DNA of 64,000 bases, taken from the NCBI GenBank assembly GCA_963668695.2, contig CAXXLQ010000004.1, positions 3,232,001 to 3,296,000 of the forward strand, written 5' to 3'. The translations under genes and the position numbers were made by a program. Under the pieces are notes generated by a model, which saw nothing but the letters and a program-made list of their open reading frames with translations, did not search any database and was not told where the DNA came from. Below, one piece after another: positions 9,219 through 43,121 of this stretch; position 1 is the first letter of the stretch, and each line of letters begins with the position of its first letter. Source of the DNA: Vicinamibacteria bacterium. Its GTDB lineage: Bacteria > Acidobacteriota > Vicinamibacteria > Marinacidobacterales > Marinacidobacteraceae.

Positions 9219-9392
9219 CGGGCCGCCGCCGGGGCGAGCGCTGTCTATCCTCGCAGGGTGGTGCCGCGCCGTCCCTCCGTCCCACGTCGGGTCCAGGCAA
9301 TGGACGAGCGTGCCGACGGGAGTTTCGCGGCCGCTGGCCGCGATGCTGGCCAGTTCTCCCGGTGGGGGCGTGAACACCGGCGTTCCTGGGTG

Positions 9393-10781
9393 TCAGACCA
9401 TCGCTTCCGGGCGGACCCAGGCGTCGAACTGTTCGGCAGTGAGGAGGCCCAGGGCCAGCGCCGCTTCCTTGAGCGAAGTCCCGTCGTTGTACGCCTTCTT
9501 GGCAATCCGCGCCGCGTTGTCGTACCCGAGGTGCGGGTTCAGCGCGGTGACCAGCATGAGCGAACGCTCCAGGTTTTCGCGCAGGCGGTCCAGGTTCGGC
9601 TCGATGCCCACCACGCACCGCTCGCGGAAGGAGTCGCAGCCGCCCTCGATGAGCCGGGTGCTTTGCAGGAAATTGTGGGCGATCAGCGGCTTCATCACGT
9701 TCAGCTCGAAGTTGCCCCCTGCCCCGCCGATCCCGATCGCCACGTCGTTTCCGAGCACCTGCGCCGTCGCCATCAGCAGCGCTTCCGACTGGGTCGGGTT
9801 CACCTTGCCCGGCATGATCGAACTCCCCGGCTCGTTCGCCGGGATCCGGATCTCCCCGATTCCGGAACGGGGGCCGGAGGCCAACCAGCGGATGTCGTTC
9901 GCGATCTTGTGGAGCGACACCGCCACCGTCTTCAGCGCCCCGTGGGCAGCCACCAGCGCGTCCTTCGAGGCGAGCGCCTCGAACTTGTTGGGGGCGGTCA
10001 CGAACTCGCACCCGGTGAGCCGGGTGAGCCAGGTCGCAGCCCGCGCCCCCATCTCGGGATGGGCGTTCAGGCCGGTCCCCACCGCGGTGCCCCCGAGCGC
10101 CAACTGGCGGAGATGGGGGAGCGACGCCTCGATCCGCGCAGCGCCGTGGTCGAGCTGGGCGGCGTAGCCCGAAAACTCCTGCCCGAGGGTGAGCGGAGTG
10201 GCGTCCTGGAGGTGGGTGCGTCCGATCTTGACCACCGAGCGGAAGGCTTCCGCGCGTTCGGCGAGCGCCGCGCCGAGAGCCCGGACCGCGGGAAGCACCC
10301 GCTCCTCGAGGGCCAGGACCGCCGCCACGTGCATTGCGGTCGGGAACACGTCGTTCGACGACTGCCCCCGATTCACGTCGTCGTTCGGGTGGACGAGGCG
10401 GCTTTCGCCGCGCGGCCCGCCGAGGATTTCGCTGGCCCGGTTCGCAAGCACCTCGTTCAGGTTCATGTTGGACTGGGTGCCGCTGCCGGTCTGCCAGACG
10501 AGGAGCGGGAACTCGCTCTCGTGTTCTCCCGCGAGGACCTCGTCGGCGGCGGCCGCGATGGCGTCCGACTTCTCCTCGGTGAGCCGGCCGAGGTCCCGGT
10601 TGACGAGCGCCGCCGCCTTCTTGACGAGCGCGAGCGCCGAGACGATCTCCCGGGGCATCCGTTCGCCGGAGATGCGGAAGTTCCGCCGGGAGCGCTCGGT
10701 CTGCGCCCCGTAGAGCCGCTCCGCGGGAACGGCCACCTCGCCGAGGGTGTCCCTCTCGATTCTGGTCTCTGACTGCGTCAA
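9393..10781 (-). CDS. fumC: Fumarate hydratase class II
   Basis: [46 protein letters not shown]; start set at TTG 10781 behind a GGAGGA RBS (462 aa). Confidence 0.95.
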
Positions 10782-10881
10782 CGGATCCTCCCGCGCGGCA
10801 CGGTCGCTGCCGCCGGAATCGTACCGTGCCGGAGGCGCGGCAGCGGCGCACCGCCTCGCGGTTCCCGGCCTCGGAACCGGG

Positions 10882-10902
10882 TGCTGGCACACGGTGCTAG
10901 CA
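10882..10902. promoter_or_regulatory. Putative antitoxin operator (TGCTGGCA...TGCTAGCA)
   Basis: Two palindromic or near-palindromic octamers just upstream of the FitA-like gene. Confidence 0.4.
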
Positions 10903-10935
10903 TCGTTGATCCATCACCAACCCAGGGAGGCGCCC

Positions 10936-11226
10936 ATGAGTTACGCCATCACGGTCCGCGGTCTCGACGAGCGCGAGAAGTCCTGGCTGCAGGCGGAAGC
11001 CAGAGAAGCCGGGATTTCGATGGAGGAGTTCGTCCGGCGCATGATCCGCGCGGAGCGGGAACGGCGAATCGGTAGCGAGAGCGTGTCCGACATCGTTCTT
11101 CGATACTTCGGACCGGAACACGGAGTGGAGTTGCCGCCGCGCGGTCAGTATGGCTATCGGCCCCTTGAATTTCCCGAAGACGAATTTCCCGCGGACGAAC
11201 TCCCCGCGGACGAAGGGACACCCTGA
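10936..11226 (+). CDS. FitA/VapB-like ribbon-helix-helix antitoxin
   Basis: GGAGG RBS; ITVRGLDE...A...GISMEEFVRRMI; directly upstream of a PIN toxin. Confidence 0.8.
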   Translation: MSYAITVRGLDEREKSWLQAEAREAGISMEEFVRRMIRAERERRIGSESVSDIVLRYFGPEHGVELPPRGQYGYRPLEFPEDEFPADELPADEGTP

Positions 11227-11228
11227 GA

Positions 11229-11666
11229 GTGTCCTGCGCCTGGCTCCTCGACGCGAACATCGTCTCGGAACTCATGAGGCCGACGCCGAGTCCCACCGTC
11301 CTCGGTTTTCTGAATCGGATCGGCCCTGATGGGCTCGGACTTGCTTCCGTCACCGCCTGGGAAATCCTGAACGGTCTTGGAATGATGTCCGCCGGTAAAC
11401 GCCGCTCCGAACTGACGGAGCGATTTCATGGATTCTGCGAACGCCTGTTTCGGGATCGCATCGTGGACTGGACGCTCGAGGACGCCCGGATCTGCGCCCG
11501 GATCATGGAGGAAAGGCGCCGAGGCGGTGAATCGCTCGACGGGCAACTCGCCGACGCTTTCTTGGCGGCCGCTGCGGTCCGGCGGAACCTGACGATCGTC
11601 ACCCGGAACACCCGTGACTTCCGGAACACCGGCGCCCGCACGGTCAACCCCTGGGCTGTCGGCTGA
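11229..11666 (+). CDS. vapC: VapC/FitB PIN-domain toxin
   Basis: LLDANIVSELMRP, DAFLAAAA, IVTRNTRDF, VNPW. Confidence 0.9.
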   Translation: MSCAWLLDANIVSELMRPTPSPTVLGFLNRIGPDGLGLASVTAWEILNGLGMMSAGKRRSELTERFHGFCERLFRDRIVDWTLEDARICARIMEERRRGGESLDGQLADAFLAAAAVRRNLTIVTRNTRDFRNTGARTVNPWAVG

Positions 11667-11681
11667 CCCGGAGGTCGCGGC

Positions 11682-13571
11682 TCAGCGGCAGACGCCGAGG
11701 TGGCGCGCGAAGAACTCCTCGACGCGCTGGTAGAGGGCGATCCGGTTGTCGGGGTCGCGGAAGCCGTGGCCCTCGGGATAGGTGTGCGCCTCGTACTCGA
11801 TGCCGTGTTCTTCGAACGCCGCCACCGCGAGTTCGAAGTTCAGGAAGGGCGCCCGGACATCGCGGTCGCCGTGCTGGATGAGGACCGGCGCAGTGATGTT
11901 TCCGATGCGGGCCAGGGTCTCCGTCTTGTCATAGATCTCGGGCCGCTCGTCGGGGAGTCCGCCGTGGCCGTCCACGGTGAACACCCTGCCGAGCCGGTCC
12001 TGGTGCTCGAAGGTCTGCCGCTGGGAGTAGATCCCCGCCATCGGCGCCGCGGCGTCGAACTTGTCCGGCGTGCGGGTGATGGCCGCCATGCTCTGCATGC
12101 CCCCGTAGCTGTAGCCGTAGATGCCGACCCTGCCGCTCACGTAGGGCTCTGCCCGCAGCCAGTCGGCCGCCGCTCCGGGATCGAGGGCCTGTCCGTTCAG
12201 CCAGTCCTCGTCGCCGAGGTCCTGGAACTCCCGCCCGAAGCCGGAGCCGCCCCGGTAGTTCACCGCGAGCACCACGAAGCCCCGCGAGGCGAGGTACTGC
12301 TCGGTCAGGTTGGGACCCGCGAGGTAGGAATTCGTGCCGCCGCCGTGCACCTGGACGAGCGCCGGGCAGACGGCGCCCTCTTCCACCGCCTCCGGGAGGT
12401 AGAGGAAGCCCTGGATGTAGTGGCCGTCAAAGCTCCGGTAGGAAACCTCGCGCGGGGCCCGCACTCCTTCCCACACCGGGGACAGCCGGGTCCGCCGCTC
12501 CGCCGGGCCTCCCGCCGCCGAGACCGTGTAGAGCTCGGCGCCTTCGTTGGAGGAAGAGCGCACGAAGGCGAACCCCTCCGCCCCCGCGCTCGCCGAGAGG
12601 CTCGAGAACACCCCGCCGAGGTTCGTCACCCGGGTGGCGGCGCCCCCGGCGGCTGGCACGGACCAGAGGTAGTGCTCGCCGCGTTCCTGGTGCGCGAAGA
12701 AGAGCCGCGAGCCGTCCCCGGACCAGAACGGCCGGAAGCGGTAGGCGGTCGCGAAGGACGACATCGGGACGGGTTCTTCGGGCCCGCCCGCCGGGTCGAG
12801 GAGGTAGAGATCGGCGATGTCCAGGTACCAGTACTGCTCCTTCTTCACCGCCAGCACCGCGATGTGGCTCCCGTCGGGGGACCACGCCGGGGCCGTGGAG
12901 ATGGCGCGCAGGGAATCCGTCAACTGGCGCTCGGTTCCGGTCGCCACGTCCGCCAGCCAGACGTCGTCGGACCAGGTGTCCGCCTTATTCGCCACGTAGG
13001 CAACGGTCTCCCCGTCCGGCGACCACGACACCCCGAAACGCACCTCGTCGGCGGTCATCGCGCCGGAGGTGAGTTGACGGGGCTCGCCGCCCGCCGCTGG
13101 CACCAGCCAGACGTCCTGGCTGCCGCTCGCGCTCGCCAGGACCGCGACGGTGGCTCCCTCGGGAGACCAGGCAGGGGCGCGGACTCCCTCGAGCCCGTCG
13201 GTCAGCGGGGCGGCATCCGGATCTCCGACCGGAGCGGCGAAGAGGTTTCCGTCCCGCAGGAAGGCGACCCGCCCGCCGTCCGGCGACCAGGCCGGCGAGC
13301 TTCCGGTGAGCCAGAAACGCAGCACCGGCGGCTTCTCGGTGAGGTCCAGGAGGTGGATCCCGCGGCCGTCAGCGCTTTCGGCGACCGCCGCGACCCAGCG
13401 CCCGTCGGGGGAGATGGCTGCCTGAAAGACGCCGCCGCGGGCGTCGCGGAAGATGTTCTCGAGGGTGAGGGGGACGGCGCCCGACTCGACCGGATCCGAG
13501 GGGCTGCCGCAGGCGACGAGGGCGAGCACCGCAAGTCCGCAGCATGTCGCAAAGGCCCGCGCCGACAACAT
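11682..13571 (-). CDS. S9-family prolyl oligopeptidase / acylaminoacyl peptidase, probable lipoprotein
   Basis: PD40-like AWSPDG propeller repeats, VHGGG, NYRGGSGFG, GYSYGG nucleophile motif, QHGDRD, EGHGF; lipobox LVAC; start chosen at ATG 13571. Confidence 0.9.
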   Translation of the reverse strand: MLSARAFATCCGLAVLALVACGSPSDPVESGAVPLTLENIFRDARGGVFQAAISPDGRWVAAVAESADGRGIHLLDLTEKPPVLRFWLTGSSPAWSPDGGRVAFLRDGNLFAAPVGDPDAAPLTDGLEGVRAPAWSPEGATVAVLASASGSQDVWLVPAAGGEPRQLTSGAMTADEVRFGVSWSPDGETVAYVANKADTWSDDVWLADVATGTERQLTDSLRAISTAPAWSPDGSHIAVLAVKKEQYWYLDIADLYLLDPAGGPEEPVPMSSFATAYRFRPFWSGDGSRLFFAHQERGEHYLWSVPAAGGAATRVTNLGGVFSSLSASAGAEGFAFVRSSSNEGAELYTVSAAGGPAERRTRLSPVWEGVRAPREVSYRSFDGHYIQGFLYLPEAVEEGAVCPALVQVHGGGTNSYLAGPNLTEQYLASRGFVVLAVNYRGGSGFGREFQDLGDEDWLNGQALDPGAAADWLRAEPYVSGRVGIYGYSYGGMQSMAAITRTPDKFDAAAPMAGIYSQRQTFEHQDRLGRVFTVDGHGGLPDERPEIYDKTETLARIGNITAPVLIQHGDRDVRAPFLNFELAVAAFEEHGIEYEAHTYPEGHGFRDPDNRIALYQRVEEFFARHLGVCR

Positions 13572-13668
13572 GAATGCGCTTCGGCAAAGCGGCAGGTGGG
13601 TTGGTCTCGAGGGTGGTTCCGGCATCATGATTATGGTGACACTGCTTTCCGCTGACTGGAAGCGGCCG

Positions 13669-13896
13669 ATGCCTGCGAACCGCCAGAAGTTCTCCACCCG
13701 GGTCAATAGCGAAACCCTTGCCCAGGTTCGCAAAATCGCGGCGGAAGAGGATCGTCAGCACCAGGCAGTGGTCGACGAAGCGCTGGCTGACCTCGTGGAG
13801 AAGCGAAGGCAGGTCCGTCCCCGGCCGCACGTCGTTGCGGCCTGTCGGGGGAGTCTCGACAAATACGACGAGCTGTACCAGAAGCTCGCGAAATGA
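13669..13896 (+). CDS. Orphan RHH-type antitoxin, paralogue of 19719..19946
   Basis: RQKFSTRVNSETLAQVRKIAAEE...YDELYQKLAK, closely similar to the doc-associated antitoxin. Confidence 0.75.
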   Translation: MPANRQKFSTRVNSETLAQVRKIAAEEDRQHQAVVDEALADLVEKRRQVRPRPHVVAACRGSLDKYDELYQKLAK

Positions 13897-13964
13897 GGGA
13901 CTAACCTCACCCCGGCGGCCCCCACCATCGCCGTCTCAACCTCGCCCGATCGAAGGAGGCCGAC

Positions 13965-15215
13965 ATGCGTAGCGGCATTGTTCTGCTGGCGGCTTGGCTC
14001 CTGGCCCCCGCCCCGGAGGCGTGGGCCGGGCAGGCCGGCCCCGAGGCGGAACCCATCACGCTGGCCCGGGTGCTCGCGGCCGGACGTGCCGAGTCGCCGG
14101 CGATCGCCGCGGCGCGGTCCCGCGAGGATGCGGCTGCCGCTGCGGCCGGCGCGGCCGGGCGTTGGCCCAATCCCGCAATCGAATTGCGGAGCGAGAACTG
14201 GGGCGCCGGCGTGCCCGGAGGCCTGCGGAAGGACAGCTTCGCCACCCTCACCCAGACGCTGGAACTCGGCGGCAAGCGGGGCGCCCGGCGGGGGATCGCC
14301 GAGGCCGAGGCGGAGGACGCCCGCGCCGCGACCTTCGCGACAACGCAGACGATCGAACGCGAGATCGCCGCGCGCTACCTCGACGCCGTCCGCCTGCGGG
14401 ATCGGACGGGCATCCTGACGGCCCAGCGCGACGCCCTCGACGAACTGGTCCGCATCCTCGAACGCCGCGTGGCCGAAGGTCTGGCGCCCGACGCCGAGCG
14501 CGCCCGCCTCGCGGCCGAACGGACCACCGTCGCCATCGCGGCGACCCGAGCCGAAGTGGCGGCCGACCGGGCTTTCCTGGAACTCCGGGCGCTCGCCGCC
14601 CTTCCGGGCGGGATAACGGCGGAGGCCCTCGTCCGGCCCGAGCCGATCCCGGTGCCCACGGGAGATCCGGAGGCGCTCGCCAACGGCGCCGCGGCCGCGC
14701 GCCCCGATGTCCGCGCGGCAGCCGCACGGGTCGAGACCGCACAACGGGAGCTCCGTCTGGAGAACTCCCTCCGGATTCCCGACCTGACGGTGAACACCGG
14801 CCTGAAGCGGACGCTCGAGACGAACACCGGCGTTTTCGCGCTGCGAGTGAGCCTGCCGCTGTTCGACCGGCGCCAGGTGGCCACCACCCTGGCGCGCGGA
14901 GAGGTCCGGGCCGCCGAACTCGAACGGGATGCGGTCACCCGGCTTGCCGCCGCGGACGCCATCGCCGCGCTCCTGACCGCGCACCGGCTGGCCGAGGCTG
15001 CCGCCGGCGCGGCCTCGCAACTGGTTGAGCCGGCGACGATCGCGCGCACCGCGATGCGGTCGGCGTTCAACCTCGGCGCGGCGGACCTCCTCCTCGTCGT
15101 GGACAGGGAGCGCGCCTACGCCGACGCCCGCCTGCTCGAGAACGACATCCAGATCGAAGCCGTCGCCGCCGCCATCGCGGCGCGGCTCGCCCTGGGGGAG
15201 GCGCCCCTGCCATGA
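13965..15215 (+). CDS. TolC-family outer membrane efflux protein (CzcC-like)
   Basis: Signal peptide, WPNPAIE, QTLELGGKRGAR, SLPLFDRRQ; first gene of an RND operon. Confidence 0.85.
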   Translation: MRSGIVLLAAWLLAPAPEAWAGQAGPEAEPITLARVLAAGRAESPAIAAARSREDAAAAAAGAAGRWPNPAIELRSENWGAGVPGGLRKDSFATLTQTLELGGKRGARRGIAEAEAEDARAATFATTQTIEREIAARYLDAVRLRDRTGILTAQRDALDELVRILERRVAEGLAPDAERARLAAERTTVAIAATRAEVAADRAFLELRALAALPGGITAEALVRPEPIPVPTGDPEALANGAAAARPDVRAAAARVETAQRELRLENSLRIPDLTVNTGLKRTLETNTGVFALRVSLPLFDRRQVATTLARGEVRAAELERDAVTRLAAADAIAALLTAHRLAEAAAGAASQLVEPATIARTAMRSAFNLGAADLLLVVDRERAYADARLLENDIQIEAVAAAIAARLALGEAPLP

Positions 15216-16396: not shown

Positions 16397-16398
16397 CG

Positions 16399-19691: not shown

Positions 19692-19718
19692 ATTCCTGTT
19701 CGTTCCAGGAACCGCCCC

Positions 19719-19946
19719 ATGCCTCCGACCCGCGAAAAGTTCGCCACCCAGGTGAACACCGAGACCCTGGCCCAGGTTCGCGAGATCGCGGCGAAAGAGG
19801 GTCGTCAACTCCAGGCGCTGGTGGACGAAGCGCTGGCCGACCTGGTGGAGAAGCGAAAGCAGGCTCGTCCGCGACGGCACGTCATGGGCGCCTATCTGGG
19901 CAGTCTGGACAAGCACGACGAGCTCTACAAGAAACTCGCGAAGTGA
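19719..19946 (+). CDS. RHH-type antitoxin of the Doc module
   Basis: REKFATQVNTETLAQVREIAAKEGRQLQALVDEALADL; stop overlaps toxin start (GTGA). Confidence 0.8.
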   Translation: MPPTREKFATQVNTETLAQVREIAAKEGRQLQALVDEALADLVEKRKQARPRRHVMGAYLGSLDKHDELYKKLAK

Positions 19947-20323
19947 GGGACTACCTCACCCTGGCCGAGGTTCTCGCCATCCTCGCCGACCAGGTCGAGC
20001 GCTACGGCGGCCTGCACGGCGTCCGGGATCCCGGTCTGCTGGAAGCGGCGCTCTATCGGCCTCAAACCGGTTACTACGCCGATCTCGTAGAAGAAGCCGC
20101 CGCCCTTTGGGAAAGCCTTTCCCAGAACCATCCGTTCCTCGATGGCAACAAGCGCACGGCGTTCGCCGCGATGTACACCTTTCTCGCAATCAACGGCGCG
20201 CACCTGGCGGCGAGCGCGGAGGATGTCTACAGCTTCGTCTCGGGGTTGTACGAAACGGGAACGTTCCGTTTCGACAATCTGGAGCCGTGGCTGCGGAGGA
20301 ATGTCAGCGAATCCCCGAAATGA
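19943..20323 (+). CDS. doc: Death-on-curing (Doc/Fic) toxin
   Basis: GVRDPGLLEAAL and Fic motif HPFLDGNKRT. Confidence 0.9.
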   Translation: MRDYLTLAEVLAILADQVERYGGLHGVRDPGLLEAALYRPQTGYYADLVEEAAALWESLSQNHPFLDGNKRTAFAAMYTFLAINGAHLAASAEDVYSFVSGLYETGTFRFDNLEPWLRRNVSESPK

Positions 20324-25279: not shown

Positions 25280-31880
<6,601 letters not shown>

Positions 31881-32084
31881 ACAGGGACCGCCGGTCTCGG
31901 GACCGGCATCGTGCATCGCTGACAGAGAAAAAGCGCGGGGACGGCTTGGAACGCCGACCTCTGGCCAGTTCTCCCGGTGGGGGCCGGCACCGCGGCCCGC
32001 GAGGGCCGCGGCCGGTTCATTGCTGCCGGCTTTCAAGGGACGCAGGCGGGGTAACGCTACGCTAGCCACCGGCGCGGGGAACAC

Positions 32085-32399
32085 ATGCCAGAGATCACGC
32101 TGCGGGCGAATTTCCACCGGGAGCGCGACCAGTGGATCGGATGGTGTCCTGACCTCGATGTGACCACCCAGGGCGACACGCGACGGGAAGCCGAAGAGAA
32201 CTTGCGGGAAGCGGTGAGTCTCTTCCTCGAAACGTGTCAGGAGATGGGGACCTTGGAAGATGTGTTGCGCGAGGCCAAGCTGTTCCCTGGGCTGTTCCCT
32301 GGGCTGTTCCCCCTACCCGAGGTGAAAATCTTCCGGATTCCCTCGCCCTTGCTCGTGGAATCCCGGAAGGACTCCCGTGCCTCGGCTCCAACCGCTTAG
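32085..32399 (+). CDS. hicB: HicB-like antitoxin
   Basis: WIGWCPDLDVTTQGDTRREAEENLREAVSLFLE. Confidence 0.8.
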   Translation: MPEITLRANFHRERDQWIGWCPDLDVTTQGDTRREAEENLREAVSLFLETCQEMGTLEDVLREAKLFPGLFPGLFPLPEVKIFRIPSPLLVESRKDSRASAPTA

Positions 32400-32891
32400 T
32401 TAGCAGCCTGTGGTGGAACCCGGGTGAGCGCCGAGGCTGGCCAGTTCTCCCGGTGGGGGCGAGGCCCAGTTCTCCCGGTGGGGCCAGTCCTCCCGGTGGG
32501 GGCCCGGCTGACAAGGCGCGTGAGGGAGGAGCCCCCACCGGGAGAACTGGCCCGGGTGTATTTCGACCGAAACGCAACGATGAGCGGCGCGCAGCGACGC
32601 GGTTCAGCCGGGATGGATCGCCGGCCGAGCCCCCACCGGGAGAACTGGGCCGCGCGGGTTTCACCACAGGCTGCTAGGGTCGAGATCCTCATCAAGGTCT
32701 TCGAGGCCGACGGATGAGTGCGGTCCAGACAGAAGGGTTCGCACCTGAGCATGACCAAACCGGGTCACAAGCGTCCGGTAGTCGTCATCACGAGCAAGAA
32801 GGAAGCGGAGGTCTGGCTGATCCGGACGAATCTGAGAACGGCCGGAATGAGCCGGGATAGGTACTTCGCGCTTCTGGAACAAGTTCGCTGA
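32377..32891 (+). pseudogene. hicA: HicA toxin, interrupted by a MITE and a nonsense codon
   Basis: Removing 32400-32677 restores MPRLQPLRVEILIKVFEADG*VRSRQKGSHLSMTKPG...AGMSRDRYFALL (HicA GSH motif); TGA at 32715. Confidence 0.8.
32400..32677. mobile_element. MITE-like element, copy 2 (five ~20-bp inserts)
   Basis: TIRs TAGCAGCCTGTGGTGGAACCCG / CGGGTTTCACCACAGGCTGCTA; TAG on both sides; internal homology to copy 1. Confidence 0.85.
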
Positions 32892-32954
32892 GGACCGCGT
32901 CGCAGCCGACCCGACGAAGGCCGAGCCGCCCGTCGCGCTGGGACAATCGGCCGC

Positions 32955-33683: not shown

Positions 33684-33784
33684 CTCCCCACCGCGCAGCC
33701 GGCCAGCGCCAACGCGCTACCGGCAGCAGCCTGGCCGCGTCGCCGCGGGCGAAGGCGTGCTGCGCCCGGAAACCCGCGGCGCGG

Positions 33785-34448: not shown

Positions 34449-34615
34449 GTGGCCATAATAGCTATTAGAGCCAACTCACTACCAACGAGACCGGCGGTCA
34501 ACGGGAAAGCCACACCGGCCCAGGAAGGCGGCTTCGGGGCATGCTCCGAGTCGTTGAGTTCGGTCGGTGAGTTCAGTCGGGGAGCTTGGTCGAGCCCCGT
34601 GACGCAATCGCCCCC

Positions 34616-35749
34616 TCACCCCCCGAGCATCGTCCGCGCCAGCGTCCCCATCCCGAACCCGAGGTAGTTCCCCACCGCGTAACCGGCGAGCGCGACCGCG
34701 ATCCCGGGGAGCAGCTTGTCGCCGTAGCCGCGGGCCGAGGCGATCGCCACCGCCGAGGCGGCGCCTCCGATGTTCGCCTGGGAGGCCACCACCAGGGTGC
34801 CCGCGTCGAACTTGAGCAACCGCCCGACGCCGAAGATCACGAGCCCGTGGATCGCCACCGTGGTGAGGGCGAACAGGAAAAGCGCCGGCCCCGCGGCAAG
34901 CATCTCGGAGACCAGCGACTGCGCCCCGTTCCCGGCGAGGAACAGGTAGAGGAGCGAGTTGCCGAGCACCGGCGCGCCCCTGAGTTTCCGGACGGGCGCG
35001 GTGTGGCCGAGGACGAGCGCGATGGTGGTCAGCCAAAGGACCGCCGGAATCGCCGGCACCGCCGCTTCGGCGAGCCGCGCGGTCACCATCGCCCCCAGGG
35101 TGATCGCGGCGAGCCCGAAAAAGTCCATCATCCGGAGGCTCTCGCCGCTCTCCTTGAGCCGCTGCTCGAGTGTCAGCGGCGCGTCGCCGGGCCGGACCGG
35201 ATCGAGCTCCTTCCCGCCGTAGAGAAGCGCGGGGACGATGAGGCAGGTCGCGAGCCAGGCGACGGTCACGATCACGTCCGCGGCCACCGCCGCCGACATG
35301 ACGTTCGGGTCGGTGCCGAAGGCGCTCGCGAGCGCGTAGAAGTTGGCTCCGCCGCCGATATAGGTCCCGGTGAACTGACCGGTCAGCTTCCAGGCCTCGC
35401 CGCCCACCGAGCCGGAGAGCAGGAAAAACGCCACCAGCGTTCCCAGCATGGTGCCGAGCGCTCCGAGCCCGAAAGCCCCGAGCATGCTCTTCCCCGCGTC
35501 CCGAATCGTCCGCAGGTCCACGTTCAGCAGGACCAGCACGATCGCGGCGTTCACCCAGATATTGCCGAGCTGGTAGTAGGCCTCCGCGTCTCCGGGGAGG
35601 AGCCCCGAATTCGAGAGCACCATGCCGAAGACGAGGCACATGAGCCCGGCGCTCATGGCCCGGAAGAAGCGGTAGCGCCCTTCGAGCCAGACCGCGAGGA
35701 ACACCGCGGCGGCGAGCGCCAGGAAAATGCCGAAGGGATCCTGGATCAC
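34616..35749 (-). CDS. DUF819-family membrane protein
   Basis: Multiple TM helices; GTYIGGGANF, ASQANIGGAASA, GYAVGNYLG. Confidence 0.85.
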   Translation of the reverse strand: MIQDPFGIFLALAAAVFLAVWLEGRYRFFRAMSAGLMCLVFGMVLSNSGLLPGDAEAYYQLGNIWVNAAIVLVLLNVDLRTIRDAGKSMLGAFGLGALGTMLGTLVAFFLLSGSVGGEAWKLTGQFTGTYIGGGANFYALASAFGTDPNVMSAAVAADVIVTVAWLATCLIVPALLYGGKELDPVRPGDAPLTLEQRLKESGESLRMMDFFGLAAITLGAMVTARLAEAAVPAIPAVLWLTTIALVLGHTAPVRKLRGAPVLGNSLLYLFLAGNGAQSLVSEMLAAGPALFLFALTTVAIHGLVIFGVGRLLKFDAGTLVVASQANIGGAASAVAIASARGYGDKLLPGIAVALAGYAVGNYLGFGMGTLARTMLGG

Positions 35750-35806
35750 GGCGGTCAGTTCTCCCGGTGGGGGCCCTTTCCCGCGGTCAGCGCCCGGCTT
35801 TCCCGC

Positions 35807-35905
35807 TCAGCGGACCCAATTCAGCGGACCCAGTTCAGCGGGCCCAATTCAACGGGCCCAATTCAACGGGCCCAATTCAGCGGACCCAAGTTCAGCGGAT
35901 CCATT
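35807..35905. repeat. 14-bp tandem repeat x7 (TCA[G/A]CGG[A/G]CCCAAT)
   Basis: Direct reading; the last unit contains the stop codon of the FAH gene. Confidence 0.9.
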
Positions 35906-37004
35906 CCGCCCACTCGCGCACCGGGTTCACGAGCGTCCCGATGCCCTCGGCCCAGCAGGCGGCGGTGTCGCCGGGTTTCATGAAAATGGGTGGAGTCCGG
36001 GCGTAGCCCACCCCGCCCGGGGTCCCGGTGGCGATCACGTCGCCCGGCCGGAGGATTAGGTTGTGGGAGGCGAACTGGATCAGTTCCGGGATCTGGTGCT
36101 CCATCAGGCTGGTGTTGGCGTCTTGCATGATCTCCCCGGAGAGCGTGAAGCGGATGTCCAGGACGTGGGGGTCCGCGACGAACTCGGCCGGAGTGATGAA
36201 GGGGCCGAGGGGAGCGAAGGTCTCGGTGGACTTCCACACCAGCCAGTCGGAGCCGTAGCGGTCGTCCCCCCGTCCCTCACGGTCTCCCACGTCGTTCATC
36301 ATGGTGTAGCCGAAGATGTGGGCGCCGGCGTCCCCGGCCTCCACGTCGCTCGCGGGCTGGCCGATCACCACCGCCAGCTCGCATTCCCAGTCCACCATCT
36401 CCCGCTGGGGCTTCATCAGGATCGGCTCGCCGTGGCCGATGACGATGCTGCCCGGCTTCATGAACAGGTAGGGGTTCTGGCGGCGGTCCCCTTCCTCGCG
36501 CTCCCAGAAATGGTCCATCGAGACCTGGGTCTCGTCGAGCGCCGAGGCGTCCGACATGCCGGCGGGCGCGCCGGTGGTCATCTCCGTTCCGTGCGCCGGG
36601 TAGTTGAGGGCGGTGGCGAGGATGAGCCCGGGGCGCACCGGAGGAAACACATGGAGCCCCTCGAGGTCGTGGAGCCACCGCGGCCGCTCGTCCGCGGGGC
36701 CGTCGAGCAGCGGGACCACCTGGTCCACGATGGCGTGCACCCGGTCCCGCATGCCGATCGCCCAGCGGCCCGCCAGTTCCTTCATGTCCTCGGGCATCGG
36801 GAGCCGCACCCAGAGCCGGTTATGCCGCTCGAGGGAGGCGTTGGCCCCGGCGAGGTCCACCGCGTAGGCGTCGCGGAGGACGATCCCCAGGAAGGACTCT
36901 CCCCGATCTTCGAAGCTTCCGAGCCGGAACGGCTCGACCGAAGCGGCGGCCGGAGCGGCCAGCAGCACGGCGGCGGCGAGCGCAAGGACGGAGCCTCTGA
37001 TCAC
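35892..37004 (-). CDS. Fumarylacetoacetate hydrolase family protein with signal peptide
   Basis: LNYPAH, PYLFMK, VDWECELAVVIG, GYTMMNDV, FAPLGP, PGDVIATGTPGGVG. Confidence 0.9.
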   Translation of the reverse strand: MIRGSVLALAAAVLLAAPAAASVEPFRLGSFEDRGESFLGIVLRDAYAVDLAGANASLERHNRLWVRLPMPEDMKELAGRWAIGMRDRVHAIVDQVVPLLDGPADERPRWLHDLEGLHVFPPVRPGLILATALNYPAHGTEMTTGAPAGMSDASALDETQVSMDHFWEREEGDRRQNPYLFMKPGSIVIGHGEPILMKPQREMVDWECELAVVIGQPASDVEAGDAGAHIFGYTMMNDVGDREGRGDDRYGSDWLVWKSTETFAPLGPFITPAEFVADPHVLDIRFTLSGEIMQDANTSLMEHQIPELIQFASHNLILRPGDVIATGTPGGVGYARTPPIFMKPGDTAACWAEGIGTLVNPVREWAEWIR

Positions 37005-37078
37005 GGCGCCGGAGTATGCCAGAGGGAACGCCGGCCAGTCCTCCCGGTGGGGGCCTTCGAGCGCGCTCGAACGCCGCG

Positions 37079-37300
37079 TTAACAGCCCGTAGCGAAACCC
37101 ACGCGGCGTTCGAGCGGCGATGCATCCCGGCTGAACCGCCCCCCCACCGGGAGAACTGGCGCTTTGCGGCGCTCGGCGTTGCGTTTCGGTCGAATTGCAC
37201 TCGGGCCAGTTCTCCCGGTGGGGGCTCCTCCCTCGCGCGCCTTGTCAGCCGGGCGTCTCGCCCGTCTCGGCGCTCACCCGGGTTCCACCACAGGCTGTCA
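37079..37300. mobile_element. MITE-like element, copy 3 (inverted, two inserts, one end degenerate)
   Basis: Reverse-complement homology to copies 1 and 2; ends TAACAGCCCGTAG / CCACAGGCTGTCA. Confidence 0.7.
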
Positions 37301-37445
37301 AGCAACGACGGTGGCGCCATGCACGAACGAATGCACGAACTTTGGATAGGCTCCGGTGCCGAAACGAAGACAGCTCAGTGGCGGAGTCCATCGAGAGAAG
37401 CGACGGCGCCACGCTGCGGGACGGGACACCAGGAGTTCGGGAGCA

Positions 37446-38687
37446 ATGACGATCGGGACAACCACCCGTGCGGTCGCCGCAGCGGCGGTGTGTACCGCGA
37501 TCCTCTCCGGGTGCGGGGGCGAAGGGAGCAGCCCGCTGTCCGCCTCGATGGATTCGCCGCCTCCCTTGCCGCTCGGCACCGGCGCCGAGATGTGCACGAA
37601 CGGCAGCGCCGGCGACTTCCGTTGTGACGGCATCTCGCTGCACAGCCGGGTGGCGCTCGACGTGATGGGCGGAAGGACCGGCAACGACATCTGGGGCTGG
37701 TCCGATGCGCAGACCGGCCAGGAGGTCGCCCTGATGGGTATGAACAACGGCACTGCCTTCGTCGACGTCTCCGACCCGGAGAATCCGGTCTTCCTCGGGC
37801 GGCTGCCGACCCAGACCGAGGAGTCCTTCTGGCGGGACGTCAAGGTCTATCGGGACCATGCGTACATCGTCGCGGACGACGCCGGCGCCCACGGCATGCA
37901 GGTGTTCGATCTGACGCGCCTGAGGGGGCTGTCGGCGGCCGAGACATTCGACGCCGACGTCGTCTACACCGAATTCGGGAATGCGCACAACCTGGCGATC
38001 AACGAGGAGACGGGCTTCGCCTACGCCATGGGGTCCGATACCTGCGAAAGGGGTCTGCACATCATCGACATCCAAACGCCCGACGATCCGCAATTCCGGG
38101 CCTGTCACGACGCGGCCCCGACGCACGACACCCAGTGCGTCGTCTACCGGGGGCCCGACGCCGAGCATCTCGATCGGGAGATATGCGTCAGCTCCAACGA
38201 AGATCATCTCGAAGTGGTGGACGTCACCGACAAGTCCGCTCCGCTGATCCTGTCCTCAACCACGTATCAGATGTTTGGCTTCGTCCATCAGGGGTGGCTG
38301 ACCGAGGACCACCGGTTCTTCCTCCTGGGGGATGAAGGGGACGAGCTCAGCTTCGGCGTGCGCACGCGCACGCACGTGTTCGACGTATCGGACCTGGATG
38401 CCCCGGTATACCTCTACCCGCACGAATCGGATACCCGCTCGACCGATCACAATCTGTACGTGCTGGGCGACCGCGTGTTCCAGGCCAACTACACCTCGGG
38501 ATTGAGAGTGCTGGAGCTGGGCGATCCGGCAGACCGGGAGTTGCAGGAGATCGCCTTCTTCGACACGTATCCCCAAGGCGACAGCGTCGGGTTCGCCGGC
38601 GCCTGGAGCGTGTATCCGTATCTGCCGTCGGGGACGATCATCGTCAGCGACATCTACAACGGGCTGTTCGTCCTTTCGATGCAGTAG
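37446..38687 (+). CDS. Choice-of-anchor B / LVIVD-repeat lipoprotein
   Basis: Lipobox LSGC; NDIWGW, WRDVKVY, HGMQVFDL, HQGWLTEDH, GAWSVYPYLPSG. Confidence 0.8.
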   Translation: MTIGTTTRAVAAAAVCTAILSGCGGEGSSPLSASMDSPPPLPLGTGAEMCTNGSAGDFRCDGISLHSRVALDVMGGRTGNDIWGWSDAQTGQEVALMGMNNGTAFVDVSDPENPVFLGRLPTQTEESFWRDVKVYRDHAYIVADDAGAHGMQVFDLTRLRGLSAAETFDADVVYTEFGNAHNLAINEETGFAYAMGSDTCERGLHIIDIQTPDDPQFRACHDAAPTHDTQCVVYRGPDAEHLDREICVSSNEDHLEVVDVTDKSAPLILSSTTYQMFGFVHQGWLTEDHRFFLLGDEGDELSFGVRTRTHVFDVSDLDAPVYLYPHESDTRSTDHNLYVLGDRVFQANYTSGLRVLELGDPADRELQEIAFFDTYPQGDSVGFAGAWSVYPYLPSGTIIVSDIYNGLFVLSMQ

Positions 38688-38966
38688 GCGCCGAAGCCGC
38701 TACCGGCGACCGAACACTGGCGGGCGCGCTTCCACCCTTCGGCTGGACCGCCGGCGCGGAGGAGAGCAGGATCGCGGCGTATCGACATGAACGCGACGGG
38801 CGGCGGATACGGCCCTCCCGCGGCGCGCCGGCGGGAACGCCGAGCCGGTCCTCGGGCGGGGGGGCCTCCAACTCAGACCGGCATCGCCGCCCGGAGGGCG
38901 ACAAAACCGCCGCCCCCCAATCTCCCCAATCCCCCGAAATCAATCTCCCCGAAAACGCTCCCCGCC

Positions 38967-40673
38967 TCAGGGCCTGAGGTCCAGAACCGGATCTTTCTCG
39001 CCCGTCAGCTCCCAGCGCACCAGGGTGATCGGGAGCACTCCCGCGGCGTAGAAGCGGTCGAAGAAGTCCTTCACGGTAAACGCGTCCCCCTCCATGAGCG
39101 CCACCTCGGCCAGGAGCGCCTCGATCTGGAGCTTGCCGACCACGTAGCTGGTCCCGTAGCCGGGCTGGCGCAGGTAGAGGTGCTGTTCGCCCCGCACCAG
39201 CGCTCCCTCGGTCAACCAGCCGCGCGGCGTCCAGCGCATCGCGTATTCCACCGCATCCTCCATGTCGAAGTCGCCGCCGTGGAGGTGGAGGCCGCTGAGG
39301 GCGCGGGCGGCGCGCTGGGCGAGCAGGATCCAGGTGAGTTCCCGCTCGCGCGGGGCGCCTTCGATCAGGCCCAGATGCATGAACATCTCCTCGACCCCGG
39401 TGGCGAGCCCCTCCGAGCGCACCGCGAAGATGTTGGAGAGCGAGGGCACCGCCCGGATGGGGCTCAGATGGGGCGCGTCCCGCATCGTCGCCAGTTCGAT
39501 CCAGTGGTGCATGTGGGGCCGGAAGGCGTCCGGGCCGCGGTAGTTGACCTCGCTGAAGAAGTTCCTGAGGTCGTCCGGGTTCTCGAGCGGCTGGAAGGTT
39601 CCGTTCACCGCCCGGAGCGCCGGATCCATGAAGTCCTCGATGCTCTGCACCTCCTCCCGCTCCAGAAACGCCAGGTAGTTGTCGACCGATTCGTTGAGGC
39701 GCCGGTCGAACTCCTCCGCCGATGCGATCCGCTCGAGTTCGGGGAGCGCCCGGTTCCGGTTCTCCTCGAGCCGGAGCGAGGAGTGCGAACGGGCCAGTTC
39801 CCGCTCGAGCAGCGTCACCGTCTCCTCCCACGACCAGGGCAGCAGGTGGACGTGGCGCATCAGCCAGGTGTAGTTGTCGGCGCCGACCCCGGAGGGTCCG
39901 GTCTTCCCGTCCGCTTCGGCCTCCAGAAAGGCGCGGAAGTCCTCGCTGGCGGCGTGGGCGGCCGCCACCGCGGCGTCGAGGTCCGCGCTCGTGCCGGCAA
40001 CCCGTTCACCGAAGGCCGTCAGATCGGCCGCCTGGTTCCGGAAGGCGCGGAGTCCCGCCAGCCAGAGATCCCGGGCGTTCGAGGCCGCCAGGTTTTCCTT
40101 CGCCTGCGCCAGGAGGCCGGGGATGGCCCCGATCCGCGCCGCCAGTTCACCGGCGTCGGTCGGGGACAGCGGGTAGTCGTAGGTCCACAGATCGATGAAT
40201 CCGTGGATCACCGCCCCCTCGTGGGCCGGGACGTCGCTCTGGGCGGCGAAGATCGTGACGTAGAAGGCCGGGTCCCGGGCCCACGGCCGCCGAACCCGGT
40301 GATCGAAGTCGAGCCCGTTCATCTCGGCGCGCACCAGCTGCCAGTCGATCTGCTCGGAAACCGGCCAACTCCCGGGAGCGAGGCCGTCCAGGCGGGCGCG
40401 CCAGTCGGGCAGTTCGGCGTGCTGGCGGGCCATGGCCTCCGCGCCGTAATCCGGGACGGCGTCCCGGAACTCGGGCGCTTCGAAGTCCCGCCACTCCCCG
40501 AAGAGGGCGACCAGGTCGGCGTGGGCGCCCGGCTCTGCCGCCGCAGGCGGCGGCTCGGCTCCGCACCCGGCGAGCGTCAGGCCGGCGGTCAGGGCGGCGG
40601 TCAGGGCGGCTCCCGGGGCGAGCAGCGGCAGCGGGGAAGAAAACGTGGATGACGGGGCGTACGGAGCGTTCAT
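38967..40673 (-). CDS. DUF885-family lipoprotein
   Basis: Lipobox LAGC; RSEGLATGVEE, QPGYGTSYVVGKLQI. Confidence 0.75.
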   Translation of the reverse strand: MNAPYAPSSTFSSPLPLLAPGAALTAALTAGLTLAGCGAEPPPAAAEPGAHADLVALFGEWRDFEAPEFRDAVPDYGAEAMARQHAELPDWRARLDGLAPGSWPVSEQIDWQLVRAEMNGLDFDHRVRRPWARDPAFYVTIFAAQSDVPAHEGAVIHGFIDLWTYDYPLSPTDAGELAARIGAIPGLLAQAKENLAASNARDLWLAGLRAFRNQAADLTAFGERVAGTSADLDAAVAAAHAASEDFRAFLEAEADGKTGPSGVGADNYTWLMRHVHLLPWSWEETVTLLERELARSHSSLRLEENRNRALPELERIASAEEFDRRLNESVDNYLAFLEREEVQSIEDFMDPALRAVNGTFQPLENPDDLRNFFSEVNYRGPDAFRPHMHHWIELATMRDAPHLSPIRAVPSLSNIFAVRSEGLATGVEEMFMHLGLIEGAPRERELTWILLAQRAARALSGLHLHGGDFDMEDAVEYAMRWTPRGWLTEGALVRGEQHLYLRQPGYGTSYVVGKLQIEALLAEVALMEGDAFTVKDFFDRFYAAGVLPITLVRWELTGEKDPVLDLRP

Positions 40674-40765
40674 GGCGGGCCTCCCACCAGGGTGTGGACA
40701 AGTTGGCGCGAGCGCCGAGGCCCTCACCGGGCGGTTGAACCCGCGATCGTACGCGCCCTTTGGGC

Positions 40766-40820
40766 CGCCGAAAAATGGCCGCCGGAAAACGGGCGCCGGA
40801 AAACGGGCGCCGGAAAACGG
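40766..40820. repeat. 14-bp tandem repeat x4 (CGCCGGAAAACGGG)
   Basis: Direct reading; 8 bp past the stop of the upstream gene. Confidence 0.85.
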
Positions 40821-40828
40821 TAGGACGA

Positions 40829-41971
40829 CTACCGGAGCGAGGACAGCAGGCGCAGGAAGCGCTCGATGTCCTCACGGTTGTGGTAGTGCCCGATCGACAC
40901 CCGTACCACGCCGTCTTCCGGGTTCACGCCGAGCGCCTCGAGGGTGGCCGCCGATCCGAGATCTCCGACGCCCACCTGGACTCCGGCGTCCCGGATCGCG
41001 GAACCCAGTTCCCGGGCGCCGCCTCCGTCCACGGTGAAGCTGAAGGTGGGGATCCGGTAGGCCGCCCGCCGCGGGTCGTCCTCGCCGAGCAGCGAAATCC
41101 CCTTGATGCGCGACAGGCCCCGGAGCATGAGACGGCTGAGGATGCGCTCTTCCTGACGAATGCTCTGCATTCCCTTCCGCATCGGTTCCCGCCGTCCATA
41201 GCGCTCGGAGGGAGGGGCCACGAGGGCGTTCGGCGCGTCGCCGAGCCGCTCCGCGTAGGACACCGCCCGCGCCAGCCCCGCCAGGATGTTCGGCGAAACG
41301 GCGCCGTTCGTGGATTCCTCCGCCACCGAACCCAACTCGCGAGCCCAGAGCGTCGCGCCGCGGGCTCCGAACAGTTCGTCGCCGTTCGCGATGACCGCGT
41401 CGCAGCGGAGATTCCGGATGTCGAGCGAACCGTGGGCCACGAAGTGGCTCGCCTCGGTGACGAGCACCGCATCCGTCCCCGCGAGGAGTTGCGTTACCGG
41501 GATGACCTCGTTGAGCGAGCCGGTCACCGGACACGCCTTGGTGAGCAGCACCAGCCGGGTCCGTTCGTCGAGCAGCGCCTCGAGGTCGCGAACCAGAACC
41601 CGCCCGAGGCGGCGCGGCCGCCAGTCGGACACCTCGACGCCGTCCGGGAGCGCGCTTCGCCAGACCGCCCCGCGATCGTCCGGCTCCGAGGCGGAGAGCA
41701 CCACCTTGTCACCCTCCCGCAGTCCGACGCTCGCAACCAGCCGCCGCACCAGCGTCTCGTAGGTCTCTCCGACGGCGATCTGATCTTCCGCCCAGTCCGC
41801 GTTCGAGTTCCAAAACCACGCCAGATCGGACCGCAGGTTCGCTTCCGCCGACGCATCGGCGCCCACCGGCCGCGGCCGCAGGGCGCGAGGCGCACCCATG
41901 GTGTCGAAATCAAGGCGATCGCCCCCGGGCGGGATGAACGATTCGGCGACGACTGAGAGAGGTAGATGCAT
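40829..41971 (-). CDS. Aminotransferase class V / cysteine desulfurase-like fold protein, apparently lacking the PLP lysine
   Basis: LLDERTRLV, CPVTGSLN, HFVAHGSLDI, RIPTFSF, GVVRVSIGHYHNREDIERF. Confidence 0.7.
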   Translation of the reverse strand: MHLPLSVVAESFIPPGGDRLDFDTMGAPRALRPRPVGADASAEANLRSDLAWFWNSNADWAEDQIAVGETYETLVRRLVASVGLREGDKVVLSASEPDDRGAVWRSALPDGVEVSDWRPRRLGRVLVRDLEALLDERTRLVLLTKACPVTGSLNEVIPVTQLLAGTDAVLVTEASHFVAHGSLDIRNLRCDAVIANGDELFGARGATLWARELGSVAEESTNGAVSPNILAGLARAVSYAERLGDAPNALVAPPSERYGRREPMRKGMQSIRQEERILSRLMLRGLSRIKGISLLGEDDPRRAAYRIPTFSFTVDGGGARELGSAIRDAGVQVGVGDLGSAATLEALGVNPEDGVVRVSIGHYHNREDIERFLRLLSSLR

Positions 41972-42050
41972 GGGCGGAAACGAGTTCTCCCGGGGACGGA
42001 TGCGGGATCCCGCTTAGGATACGCGCCGAGAGCGATTTACGAGAGATCCG

Positions 42051-42983
42051 ATGCCGCAGTTCCCCGAGTTTCCCGGCGCCCGGGCCGTGCTCTCGGTCCG
42101 GACCGGGAGTCGCGGCGTCGTGCGCGTCACCGGGGGGGACCGGATGGCGTTCCTCACCCGCATCATGTCGGGCCAACTTCCCCCCGCCCCCGGTGCGGCT
42201 CCCACCGCGCTGCTGGGCCCGAAGGGCAACGTCATCGCCGCCGCGGTGGCGACGGTGACCAGCGAAGCCGTGTTCCTCGAGTGCGAAGCGAGCCGGGAAC
42301 ACGCGCTGCTGGTCGCGCTCGACCGGTACCGGATCAGCGACGACGTGGACCTCTCCCTCGCTGACCGCAGCGACTTTGAAATCGTGTGCACCGACGCCGC
42401 CCCGACGCCGGAGAAACCGGATCTCGCCTCGCCGGGATGGGTCCTCGAAACCGCCGTCGGATTCATGCGCCGGGATTTCCGGCCGTGGTCGGCCACCACC
42501 ATCTTTCATCTCGGCATCCGGACCGGGGACCGGGTTCCGTTCCGCGATCTGATGCTCGCCGAGGGGGAGTCGGTTGAGGCGTCGCCGGAAGAGCAGGAAT
42601 ACCTCCGGATCCTCGCCGGCGAGCCGCGCTGGGAGGCCGAGCTCCACGAGCGTTCCCTGCCCCTCCAGAGTGGTCTCTCGGCCCACGTCCGCCTCGGCAG
42701 GGGCTGTTACATCGGCCAGGAGTACGTGGCGCGCCAAGCGCATCGGGGCCGCATCCCGCGGCTCCTCCGCCGCCTGGACTTCGAGGACGGAGGAGTCCCC
42801 GAAACGGATGCGGTGGTCCTCTTCGAGGGGGCTTCCGCGGGTCGGATCAAAAGCGCCGCCGGCCGGCCGGCCGACTGGCGGGGTCCGGCCGGCGTCGCCC
42901 TCGCCGTCGTGTCTGCCAACGTGCCCCCCGGCGCCGCCGTGGAGGTCCTTCGCGGCCTGACCGCCACCATCGCAGAGGTCTAG
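42051..42983 (+). CDS. ygfZ: YgfZ/GcvT-like folate-binding protein
   Basis: RVTGGDRMAFL, RGCYIGQEYVAR signature. Confidence 0.85.
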   Translation: MPQFPEFPGARAVLSVRTGSRGVVRVTGGDRMAFLTRIMSGQLPPAPGAAPTALLGPKGNVIAAAVATVTSEAVFLECEASREHALLVALDRYRISDDVDLSLADRSDFEIVCTDAAPTPEKPDLASPGWVLETAVGFMRRDFRPWSATTIFHLGIRTGDRVPFRDLMLAEGESVEASPEEQEYLRILAGEPRWEAELHERSLPLQSGLSAHVRLGRGCYIGQEYVARQAHRGRIPRLLRRLDFEDGGVPETDAVVLFEGASAGRIKSAAGRPADWRGPAGVALAVVSANVPPGAAVEVLRGLTATIAEV

Positions 42984-43121
42984 CTCCGCCAGGGAACGCC
43001 GGTCTTTAGACCGGCACGGCGGCGCGCAGCGCCGCCAAATCGCGTACCGCCCCTCGCCCGGACGACGCGCGACAGCGGGCCCCCACCGGGAGAACTGGCC
43101 TCCGGCCGGCATCGCGCCCCG

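Follow-up and report, generated by a model that had tools for sequence, protein, structure and literature searches.

An 18-nt unit recurrently inserted into MITE and REP copies of Vicinamibacteria

We analyzed a 64,000-nt stretch of the genome of a Vicinamibacteria bacterium (contig CAXXLQ010000004.1, positions 3,232,001 to 3,296,000), here called the window. It contains three copies of a miniature inverted-repeat transposable element (MITE), hairpins of a repetitive extragenic palindrome (REP) family, and copies of a much shorter unit with the 18-nt core CCAGTYCTCCCGGTGGGG (Table 1). This unit is a non-autonomous, ultra-short insertion module of the GC-rich intergenic DNA of Vicinamibacteria, placed mostly in MITE or REP copies, and ranks with the smallest mobile units of DNA known from bacteria. 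We show that insertion of the fixed 18-nt core was recurrent and recent, and that it left no target duplication while the flanking bases were replaced in register.

Table 1. Unit copies, host repeats and empty references in the window. The match start is that of the 20-mer GCCAGTTCTCCCGGTGGGGG.
Feature	Position	Strand	Match start	Context
Unit copy 1	9350..9367	+	9349+	Core CCAGTTCTCCCGGTGGGG; in a REP-family hairpin
Unit copy 2	31965..31982	+	31964+	REP hairpin of the GCCGACCTC..GGTCGGC type, downstream of the beta-galactosidase ORF
Unit copy 3	32441..32458	+	32440+	MITE site s46
Unit copy 4	32466..32483	+	32465+	MITE site s53; first of a head-to-tail pair; TT variant
Unit copy 5	32484..32501	+	32483+	Second of the tandem pair, starting 18 nt after copy 4; TC variant CCAGTCCTCC...
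Unit copy 6	32533..32550	-	32532-	MITE site s84, also filled in MITE copy 3
Unit copy 7	32631..32648	-	32630-	MITE site s164
Unit copy 8	35755..35772	+	35754+	First base T; unique intergenic DNA
Unit copy 9	37035..37052	+	37034+	TC variant; REP half-site GGAACGCCGG^; adjoins MITE copy 3
Unit copy 10	37142..37159	-	37141-	MITE site s130; plus relative to the MITE
Unit copy 11	37206..37223	+	37205+	MITE site s84; minus relative to the MITE
Unit copy 12	43081..43098	-	43080-	REP-derived context GCGATGCCGGCCGGAGG^; ∼170 bp upstream of an IS256-family transposase gene
REP hairpin pair	6536..6607	+		Uninterrupted; GCGATGCCGGTCTGAAGACCGGCG(T/C)TCC; in-window empty references for REP contexts
MITE copy 1	3849..4034	+		No unit; in-window empty reference for all MITE sites
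MITE copy 2	32401..32676	+		276 bp: 186-bp backbone and 5 units; between a HicB-like ORF and a truncated hicA
MITE copy 3	37080..37299	-		220 bp: 184-bp backbone and 2 units

The unit in the window and in public genomes

A preliminary description of the window listed about 12 copies of a ∼20-bp motif and placed all of them in non-coding DNA; both points hold. The 20-mer had 12 matches at ≤3 mismatches, compared with 0.03 expected from dinucleotide-preserving shuffles of the window (0/100 shuffles gave 12), in DNA of ∼69% G+C. These are the copies described before, the two that had been put at 32466 and 35756 being offset by 1–2 nt. A 15-nt core was free of mismatches in 12/12 copies. On a gene map made of open reading frames (ORFs) chosen by codon-position GC, most, not all, of which were given a Pfam annotation, 12/12 copies were intergenic. 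Copy 1, for instance, lies between a MacB-like permease gene (6786–9218) and a fumarase gene (9393–10892), and the units at 37034–37224 lie between a FAA hydrolase gene and the next gene. Where two or three units follow each other head to tail, they repeat at intervals of exactly 18 nt, and this sets the length of the core.

When public genomes were scanned with the core, at least 117 loci holding at least 226 units at ≤2 mismatches were found. Nearly all of the loci listed were acidobacterial, coming from metagenome-assembled genomes (MAGs) named Ca. Marinacidobacterium, Vicinamibacteria or Acidobacteria; NCBI taxonomy places the genus Marinacidobacterium in the class Vicinamibacteria. Single matches in Georgenia, Pseudarthrobacter and an Acidimicrobiaceae MAG were taken as probable chance matches, because the characteristic flanks are missing and, in Georgenia, the copy falls within a GCS2 ORF. 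The unit is also present on two short contigs binned as Gammaproteobacteria and Blastochloridaceae; on the former its flanks are the REP-like ones known from Acidobacteria, and mis-binning may be the reason.

Among the 238 occurrences in the window and the loci, 179 read CCAGTTCTCCCGGTGGGG, 24 were a T6C variant and 11 read CCGGTTCTCCCGGTAGGG. The last form was limited in this sample to OZ246946.1 and to two other genomes of the class Vicinamibacteria, OZ244852.1 and OZ244986.1 (one copy each). At eight loci of OZ246946.1 (L020, L021, L037, L038, L039, L053, L070 and L071) it occupies fixed MITE sites, and canonical units are nested inside both variant and canonical units. This arrangement suggests that one unit subfamily succeeded another in that genome, CCGGTTCTCCCGGTAGGG being the older. 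At one locus of OZ244852.1 (L109) units at 300 and 600, 300 nt apart, have near-identical flanks, and the unit there belongs to a longer repeat, tandem or segmental.

That the motif is an adapter, a primer or an assembly artefact, an alternative raised when it was first described, has next to no probability. Unit-bearing records come from many species and include complete chromosomes and short-read contigs made with several different assemblers. The units are embedded at homologous repeat positions with linked flank changes. Further, a locus of CBDHFO010000017.1 (L016) is orthologous to window positions 34755–36812 at 95–96% identity and has the unit at the same place; the window organism is thus a close relative of that genome. 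Neither the motif nor its 14-nt sub-strings were mentioned in the literature searched, and a 47-nt tandem query gave chance-level matches only in plasmid and phage collections (best E = 0.2), none of them in a repeat context.

Recurrent insertion into MITE and REP copies

In an alignment of the three MITE copies of the window, every unit was a clean 18-nt indel. Units were found at s46, s53 (the tandem pair), s84, s130 and s164. The counts of none, five and two units given earlier for MITE copies 1, 2 and 3 agree with this alignment. At least four homologous positions had been proposed, one of them common to copies 2 and 3; the number is five, and the single common position (s84) stands. After the units had been removed, a search with MITE copy 1 as query recovered 75 near-full MITE copies from the window and the loci. 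The ∼186-bp element offers at least 14 unit positions, and 30 fill patterns were present among the 75 copies.

Unit orientation was constant at each MITE position, and the adjacent sites s147(+) and s148(-) use the same AT dinucleotide in opposite orientations. Both orientations were present in 25 MITE copies, plus only in 12, minus only in 25 and none in 13. Plus and minus sites were filled together at the rate expected from independence, and strand exclusivity within MITE copies was rejected on this ground. Opposed unit pairs occurred only where two MITE sites happened to be filled; there were no inverted doublets of fixed spacing.

The unit also occupies sites outside the MITE. Clustering of the flanks gave 63 classes. 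When tandem and non-acidobacterial ones are set aside, ∼56 remain; they take in several REP-hairpin contexts, other units and some unique intergenic DNA. The hairpin at 9349 has the head GCGATGC and the tail GGCGTTCC, and like hairpins stand uninterrupted at 6536–6566 and 6577–6607. A unit-free copy of its exact stem variant is present in L075, which bears out the earlier statement that the unit at 9349 splits a REP. Empty counterparts of the context of copy 2 were found in L010, L023 and L033.

Near-identical MITE backbones carry different sets of units. One copy (L040) has no unit and its counterpart (L106) has units at s46, s84 and s164; another (L046) has none and its counterpart in the same genome (L033) has the s53 tandem, s130 and s164. 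The backbones of such pairs are 1.6–2.4% apart, and they differ by 3–4 units. Conversely, copies filled at the same site had a mean pairwise difference of 0.14–0.21 in the backbone and 0.07–0.23 in the ±25-nt flank vs. 0.00–0.04 in the unit. Since divergence persists in the flanks and not in the units, long-tract gene conversion is unlikely. Over the 127 units in the 75 MITE copies, mismatch to the canonical core was 1.75% per nt (32 of 40 mismatches being two subfamily variants), when compared with 12.8% divergence of the backbone from its consensus. The preliminary description had proposed repeated independent insertion of an oligomer too short for a normal MITE; the ∼56 contexts, the MITE positions, the unlike unit sets on near-identical backbones and units far less diverged than their host repeats all favor that proposal.

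The subfamily single-nucleotide polymorphisms (SNPs) cluster strongly on the MITE tree, on which filled and empty states are scattered almost at random. On a tree of the backbones, the fill of s164 required 16 changes vs. 24.1 after shuffling and that of s84 required 20 vs. 24.4, and s46, s53 and s130 required 10–11 vs. 10.5–11.3; the subfamily SNPs required 4–5 vs. 17–24. All four combinations of s84 and s164 were present in both MITE subfamilies. An alignment of L007 and L043 was uninformative on presence or absence.

A history in which the MITE and REP families originally held the unit, or in which point mutation under selection made it into a binding site for protein or RNA, and in which the empty sites are precise losses, is very improbable. 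The very high conservation of the core would suit a selected site, as would copy 8, which precedes a start codon at short distance and reads GGGAG there in reverse complement. An ancestor that was filled everywhere, however, would have held at least 14 units in a 186-bp MITE and measured >430 bp, and the losses from MITE copy 1 and elsewhere would have had to be precise deletions that restored the consensus flanks, since empty copies hold family-consensus flank bases that are missing from filled copies. Presence and absence are 18-nt indels rather than substitutions, the unit is found in unrelated contexts, and the fill states do not track the MITE tree.

Junctions and possible mechanisms of insertion

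The unit had been described as a 15-bp core with a 4-bp GGCC target duplication. This part of the description failed: the tandem period is 18 nt, 4- or 5-nt flanking direct repeats were found in 0/56 classes and 3-nt repeats in 2–4/56, and although a GGCC...GGCC pattern is present in 10/56 classes, empty REPs read ...CTCCGGTCGGC... and have no GGCC available for duplication. When filled and empty sites were aligned, 0–3 flanking target bases were found to be overwritten in register, the usual outcome being G-core-GC. In the 21 classes with empty counterparts, the net change was +18 in 14/21, +19 in 2/21, +20 in 1/21, +17 in 3/21 and +15 in 1/21.

At s164 and at the REP 3′ foot, GT or AT was replaced by core+GC. 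Replacement was of TAT by G+core+GC at s84, of AA by core+GC at s64, of GC by core+GG at s130, of GA by core+GG at s120 and of TG by core+GC inside another unit, and at s53 GC was replaced by core+GT or was unchanged; the net change was +18 in each case. At the REP stems at 9349 and 31964, CGGT was replaced by TGG+core+GC (net +19), as read from the empty L075 for the former and deduced via the other members of its flank class for the latter. At s148, AT was replaced by GC beside the core in the filled vs. empty consensus. Between near-identical MITE copies such overwrites were the sole differences near the units, and the flank changes are therefore part of the insertion event.

The written block often includes additional bases: G or TGG at its left end, and at its right end GC or, more rarely, GG or GT. 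The 3′ flank of the 56 classes was GC in 39, GG in 8 and GT in 3, and the 5′ flank was GG in 24, GC in 14 and CG in 8; CGG (14), GGC (11) and GCG (6) were enriched, not fixed, among the 5′ trinucleotides. The most-filled targets read GGY^RT^TC, and a CGGC^GTTC junction is common to MITE s164 and the 3′ foot of several REP copies (L005, L014, L019, L023 and L074). MITE copy 1 as single-stranded DNA (ssDNA) folds to a long hairpin (z = -7.9), and the replaced base had P(unpaired) >0.5 at 5/11 MITE sites vs. a background of 0.29, at most a weak trend.

Templated, in-register copy-in is the likeliest mechanism (probability ∼0.45). The 3′ end of the target would prime with 1–3 nt on a short template carrying (C)TGG-core-GC, ∼20–23 nt would be copied through the unit, and the new strand would re-anneal downstream, so that 18 nt are gained, the nearest 0–3 target bases are overwritten by the template flanks and nothing is duplicated. 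The template might be a dedicated, conserved master (an RNA or DNA served by a polymerase or reverse transcriptase of its own) or other genomic copies. Tandems would form by re-use of the GGGG^GC junction, and nested copies could arise likewise. Such copying would account for the constant length change despite variable ends, the missing target duplication, and the apparent invasion of the older CCGG...TAGGG variant of OZ246946.1 by canonical units (L038 and L070); a core that is near-invariant across genera would follow if the template were a conserved master. It is possible, if doubtful, that a dedicated DNA "writer" is at work, i.e., an enzyme, perhaps with a small conserved RNA or DNA template, that carries out target-primed, in-register synthesis of one fixed ∼20-nt sequence at preferred sites.

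Several results weigh against templated copy-in or limit the evidence for recurrent insertion. (i) Priming would rest on 1–3 nt only, because target–unit identity is at chance level: in 16 flank classes the longest word shared by target and unit was 3–5 nt, with a mean of 4.2 vs. 4.27 at random MITE positions. (ii) The net change deviates from +18 in 7/21 classes, and pure 18-nt insertions with unchanged flanks are seen in L014, L023 and part of s53. (iii) No template locus or polymerase was found among 162 ORFs (38 of the window and 124 of the loci, in ∼254 kb), which are ordinary apart from a few DDE transposases. (iv) All loci were selected for holding the motif, which biases fill frequencies and unit conservation upward; in MITE copies with two units, both were exact in 14 and one was exact in 4, which suggests that ∼12% of units are non-exact. 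(v) The MITE tree was made by a quick method from ∼170 columns. (vi) The single orthologous locus pair available (window and L016) is filled in both members, which leaves the gain unpolarised on the species tree.

Over all 18 classes compared, the longest shared word had a mean of 5.5 vs. the null of 4.27, and the excess came from two self-nested classes (13 and 19 nt); target–unit microhomology was rejected as it vanished once these two were dropped. Without any dedicated machinery, microhomology-mediated template switching or very short-tract gene conversion between copies could occur where replication stalls at palindromic MITEs and REPs, the high copy number making the unit the likeliest template. 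One to three flanking bases are co-converted in register with variable tract ends, the hosts are long palindromes, the neighboring sites s120 and s130 have the same unusual right flank GGGC, and the flanks are rich in CGG, GGC and GC, as this explanation predicts. We nevertheless consider it unlikely. One sequence only behaves in this way, since the long internal indels between aligned MITE copies are units; the core boundaries are much sharper than copy-choice predicts; tracts would always have to end at the unit, given local flanks that are 7–23% and units that are 0–4% diverged; and the core is near-invariant across genera.

Discrete transposition, in which an enzyme encoded in trans cuts or copies a ∼20-nt unit with defined ends and transfers it to preferred targets, is likewise doubtful. 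A single-strand transposase of the HUH type or a REP-associated tyrosine transposase (RAYT), an IS110-like or other recombinase, or a Cas1-like integrase would be candidates. The sharp, near-constant unit boundaries across ∼56 contexts, the constant orientation per site and the REP 3′ foot CGGC^GTTC among the preferred targets of REP-rich genomes fit such an enzyme, and HUH and IS110-type elements make no target duplication either. The in-register replacement of variable extent (none, G or TGG on the left; GC, GG, GT or none on the right), in contrast, is not predicted by transfer of fixed ends, and both orientations in single MITE copies, at the frequency that independence predicts, argue against a strict lagging-strand dependence.

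An HUH enzyme would lack a stable hairpin to act on. As ssDNA, the 23-mer unit has a minimum free energy of -2.8 kcal/mol (z +0.2 to +0.5 vs. shuffles), and z was +0.8 to +2.1 within four window contexts; a REP-like hairpin was rejected, alone or in context, and the unit is not a REP, because its fold is no better than that of shuffled sequence. The extended unit terminates in inverted repeats of only 3 nt (GCC...GGC). No RAYT, TnpA (Y1_Tnp) or reverse transcriptase gene, and no IS110 or Cas1-like gene beside the units, was found by Pfam in the same 162 ORFs, and the cas1 of the window belongs to an ordinary type I-E locus. A Rfam scan gave 0 matches at gathering thresholds and a tRNA/tmRNA scan 0 genes. 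The unit as the footprint of a larger element was also rejected: in a k-mer census of 253,725 nt no unit halves flanked a long insert, and what was found were nested units, variants with a 1-nt deletion and a small number of chance words.

Related repeats and other features of the window

The small dispersed repeats SDR1–8 of Nostocaceae (Elhai et al. 2008, Genome Res 18:1484) appear to be the nearest precedent, and the unit may be filed as a variant of the SDR kind, by the descriptions of these repeats rather than by their sequence. SDRs are 21–27 nt long, multicopy and non-coding, occur nested in other repeats as well, and are interpreted as mobile. They are the sole precedent that we know, and we know of no mechanism proposed for them since 2008. 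The unit fits this descriptive class in being <30 nt long, in having no coding capacity, in its dispersal in many copies and in its filled and empty sites within otherwise conserved sequence. The SDRs differ in phylum; the core of the unit is shorter (18 nt) and overwrites 0–3 flanking bases in register, and some SDR families share a hairpin, where the unit folds no better than shuffles. In later papers, SDR5 is said to insert precisely between nt 3 and 4 of HIP1 (PMC4390886), and SDRs are reported in Nostocaceae only (PMC5861425). The literature searched yielded nothing on Marinacidobacterium, SDR5 in Nostoc punctiforme or the smallest mobile units, and for MITEs of sponge or symbiont Acidobacteria nothing relevant by title or start of abstract.

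REPs and their inverted doublets (REPINs), the substrates of RAYT (TnpA_REP), are short (∼20–35 nt), extragenic, high-copy and non-autonomous as the unit is, and the unit lives among REP hairpins, often inserting at their stems or 3′ foot. It is not, however, an imperfect palindrome, has no inverted doublets of its own, interrupts REPs and has no RAYT nearby in the ORFs scanned. With MITEs it shares non-autonomy, filled and empty sites and subvariant families, but it is 18–23 nt long, against ≥50 nt for a MITE, its terminal inverted repeats are limited to GCC/GGC, and it makes no target site duplication (0/56). The insertion sequences (IS) of the IS200/IS605 (HUH) and IS110/IS1111 families also lack target duplication, insert in orientation with sequence preference and use REP targets; work on REP targeting by insertion elements is listed among the references of PMC3116915. 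Unlike the unit, these elements are of kilobase size, have subterminal structures and their own enzyme, and do not overwrite target bases. As an IS200/IS605 substrate the unit would be without a hairpin, and its 5′ flank is enriched, not fixed.

Mosaic intergenic repeats combined from ∼10–30-nt motifs are found in Escherichia coli (bacterial interspersed mosaic elements, BIMEs) and Neisseria (intergenic mosaic elements, NIMEs, and dRS3). A BIME reference is listed in PMC2884548. These mosaics resemble the unit in their combinatorial intergenic assembly from short motifs. No single fixed motif of theirs is known to us to have entered another transposable element at many sites.

Explanations of mobile DNA usually invoke recognizable ends for a known enzyme. 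An 18-nt payload without hairpin, inverted repeats or target duplication fits no standard mechanism, and as a second case, unrelated in host to the SDRs, it brings new material to the question of SDR mobility. The lineage offers several complete genomes of graded relatedness, very recent activity and a clear signature (+18 with in-register overwrite), and phylogenetic profiling combined with filled/empty mapping could now identify the machinery. A dedicated writer, if it exists, would be a naturally occurring counterpart of templated insertion editing and would represent a novel mobility class with an oligonucleotide-only payload, of interest to genome engineers; if there is no writer, a short sequence would be propagating itself through replication errors at palindromes.

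Upstream of a minus-strand DUF819 gene, copy 8 is 5 nt away from the GTG start, and its reverse complement gives GGGAG ∼11 nt before the start codon, an arrangement conserved in L016. The copy may thus have been co-opted as a ribosome-binding site. Just downstream of it, 13–14-nt tandem repeats (CCCAATTCAGCGG-like; 35790–35900) differ in length between the window and L016, with gaps of 27 and 13 nt.

At the right end of MITE copy 2, a HicA_toxin match (32718–32888) begins right after an in-frame TGA and the end of the MITE, and covers only profile positions 16–58 of 58. The ORF upstream of the MITE (32085–32399) has weak, sub-threshold matches only (DUF7387 and UPF0150-like). This looks like a toxin–antitoxin pair disrupted by the MITE.

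The IS256-family (Transposase_mut) gene near copy 12 (43268–44440) is followed by ∼1.4 kb of 53-nt tandem repeats (CAGCGTGGAGTTCC...; 44747–46132). A CRISPR array at 48814–51534 has 45 matches to the repeat core GTCCATCCCCGCGCGTGCGGGGGAA, the last starting at 51509, with a period of mostly 61 nt. None of its spacers matched the unit or the MITE; two weak 17–19-nt self matches lie elsewhere in the window. Beside the array, a minus-strand type I-E-like cas operon (51954–60775) gave Pfam matches to Cas1, Cas6e-type CRISPR_assoc, Cas5, CT1975 (Cas7-like), Cse1 and Cas3.

The 5′ part of the beta-galactosidase ORF upstream of copy 2 (27672–31880) contains 15-nt and 18-nt tandem repeats (27884–27973 and 28072–28161) upstream of the first Pfam domain, and the true start codon may be further downstream. 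Finally, a 246-nt direct repeat (82% identity; 13658–13903 and 19708–19953, 6 kb apart) flanks an efflux-pump cluster with HlyD and AcrB-family genes.

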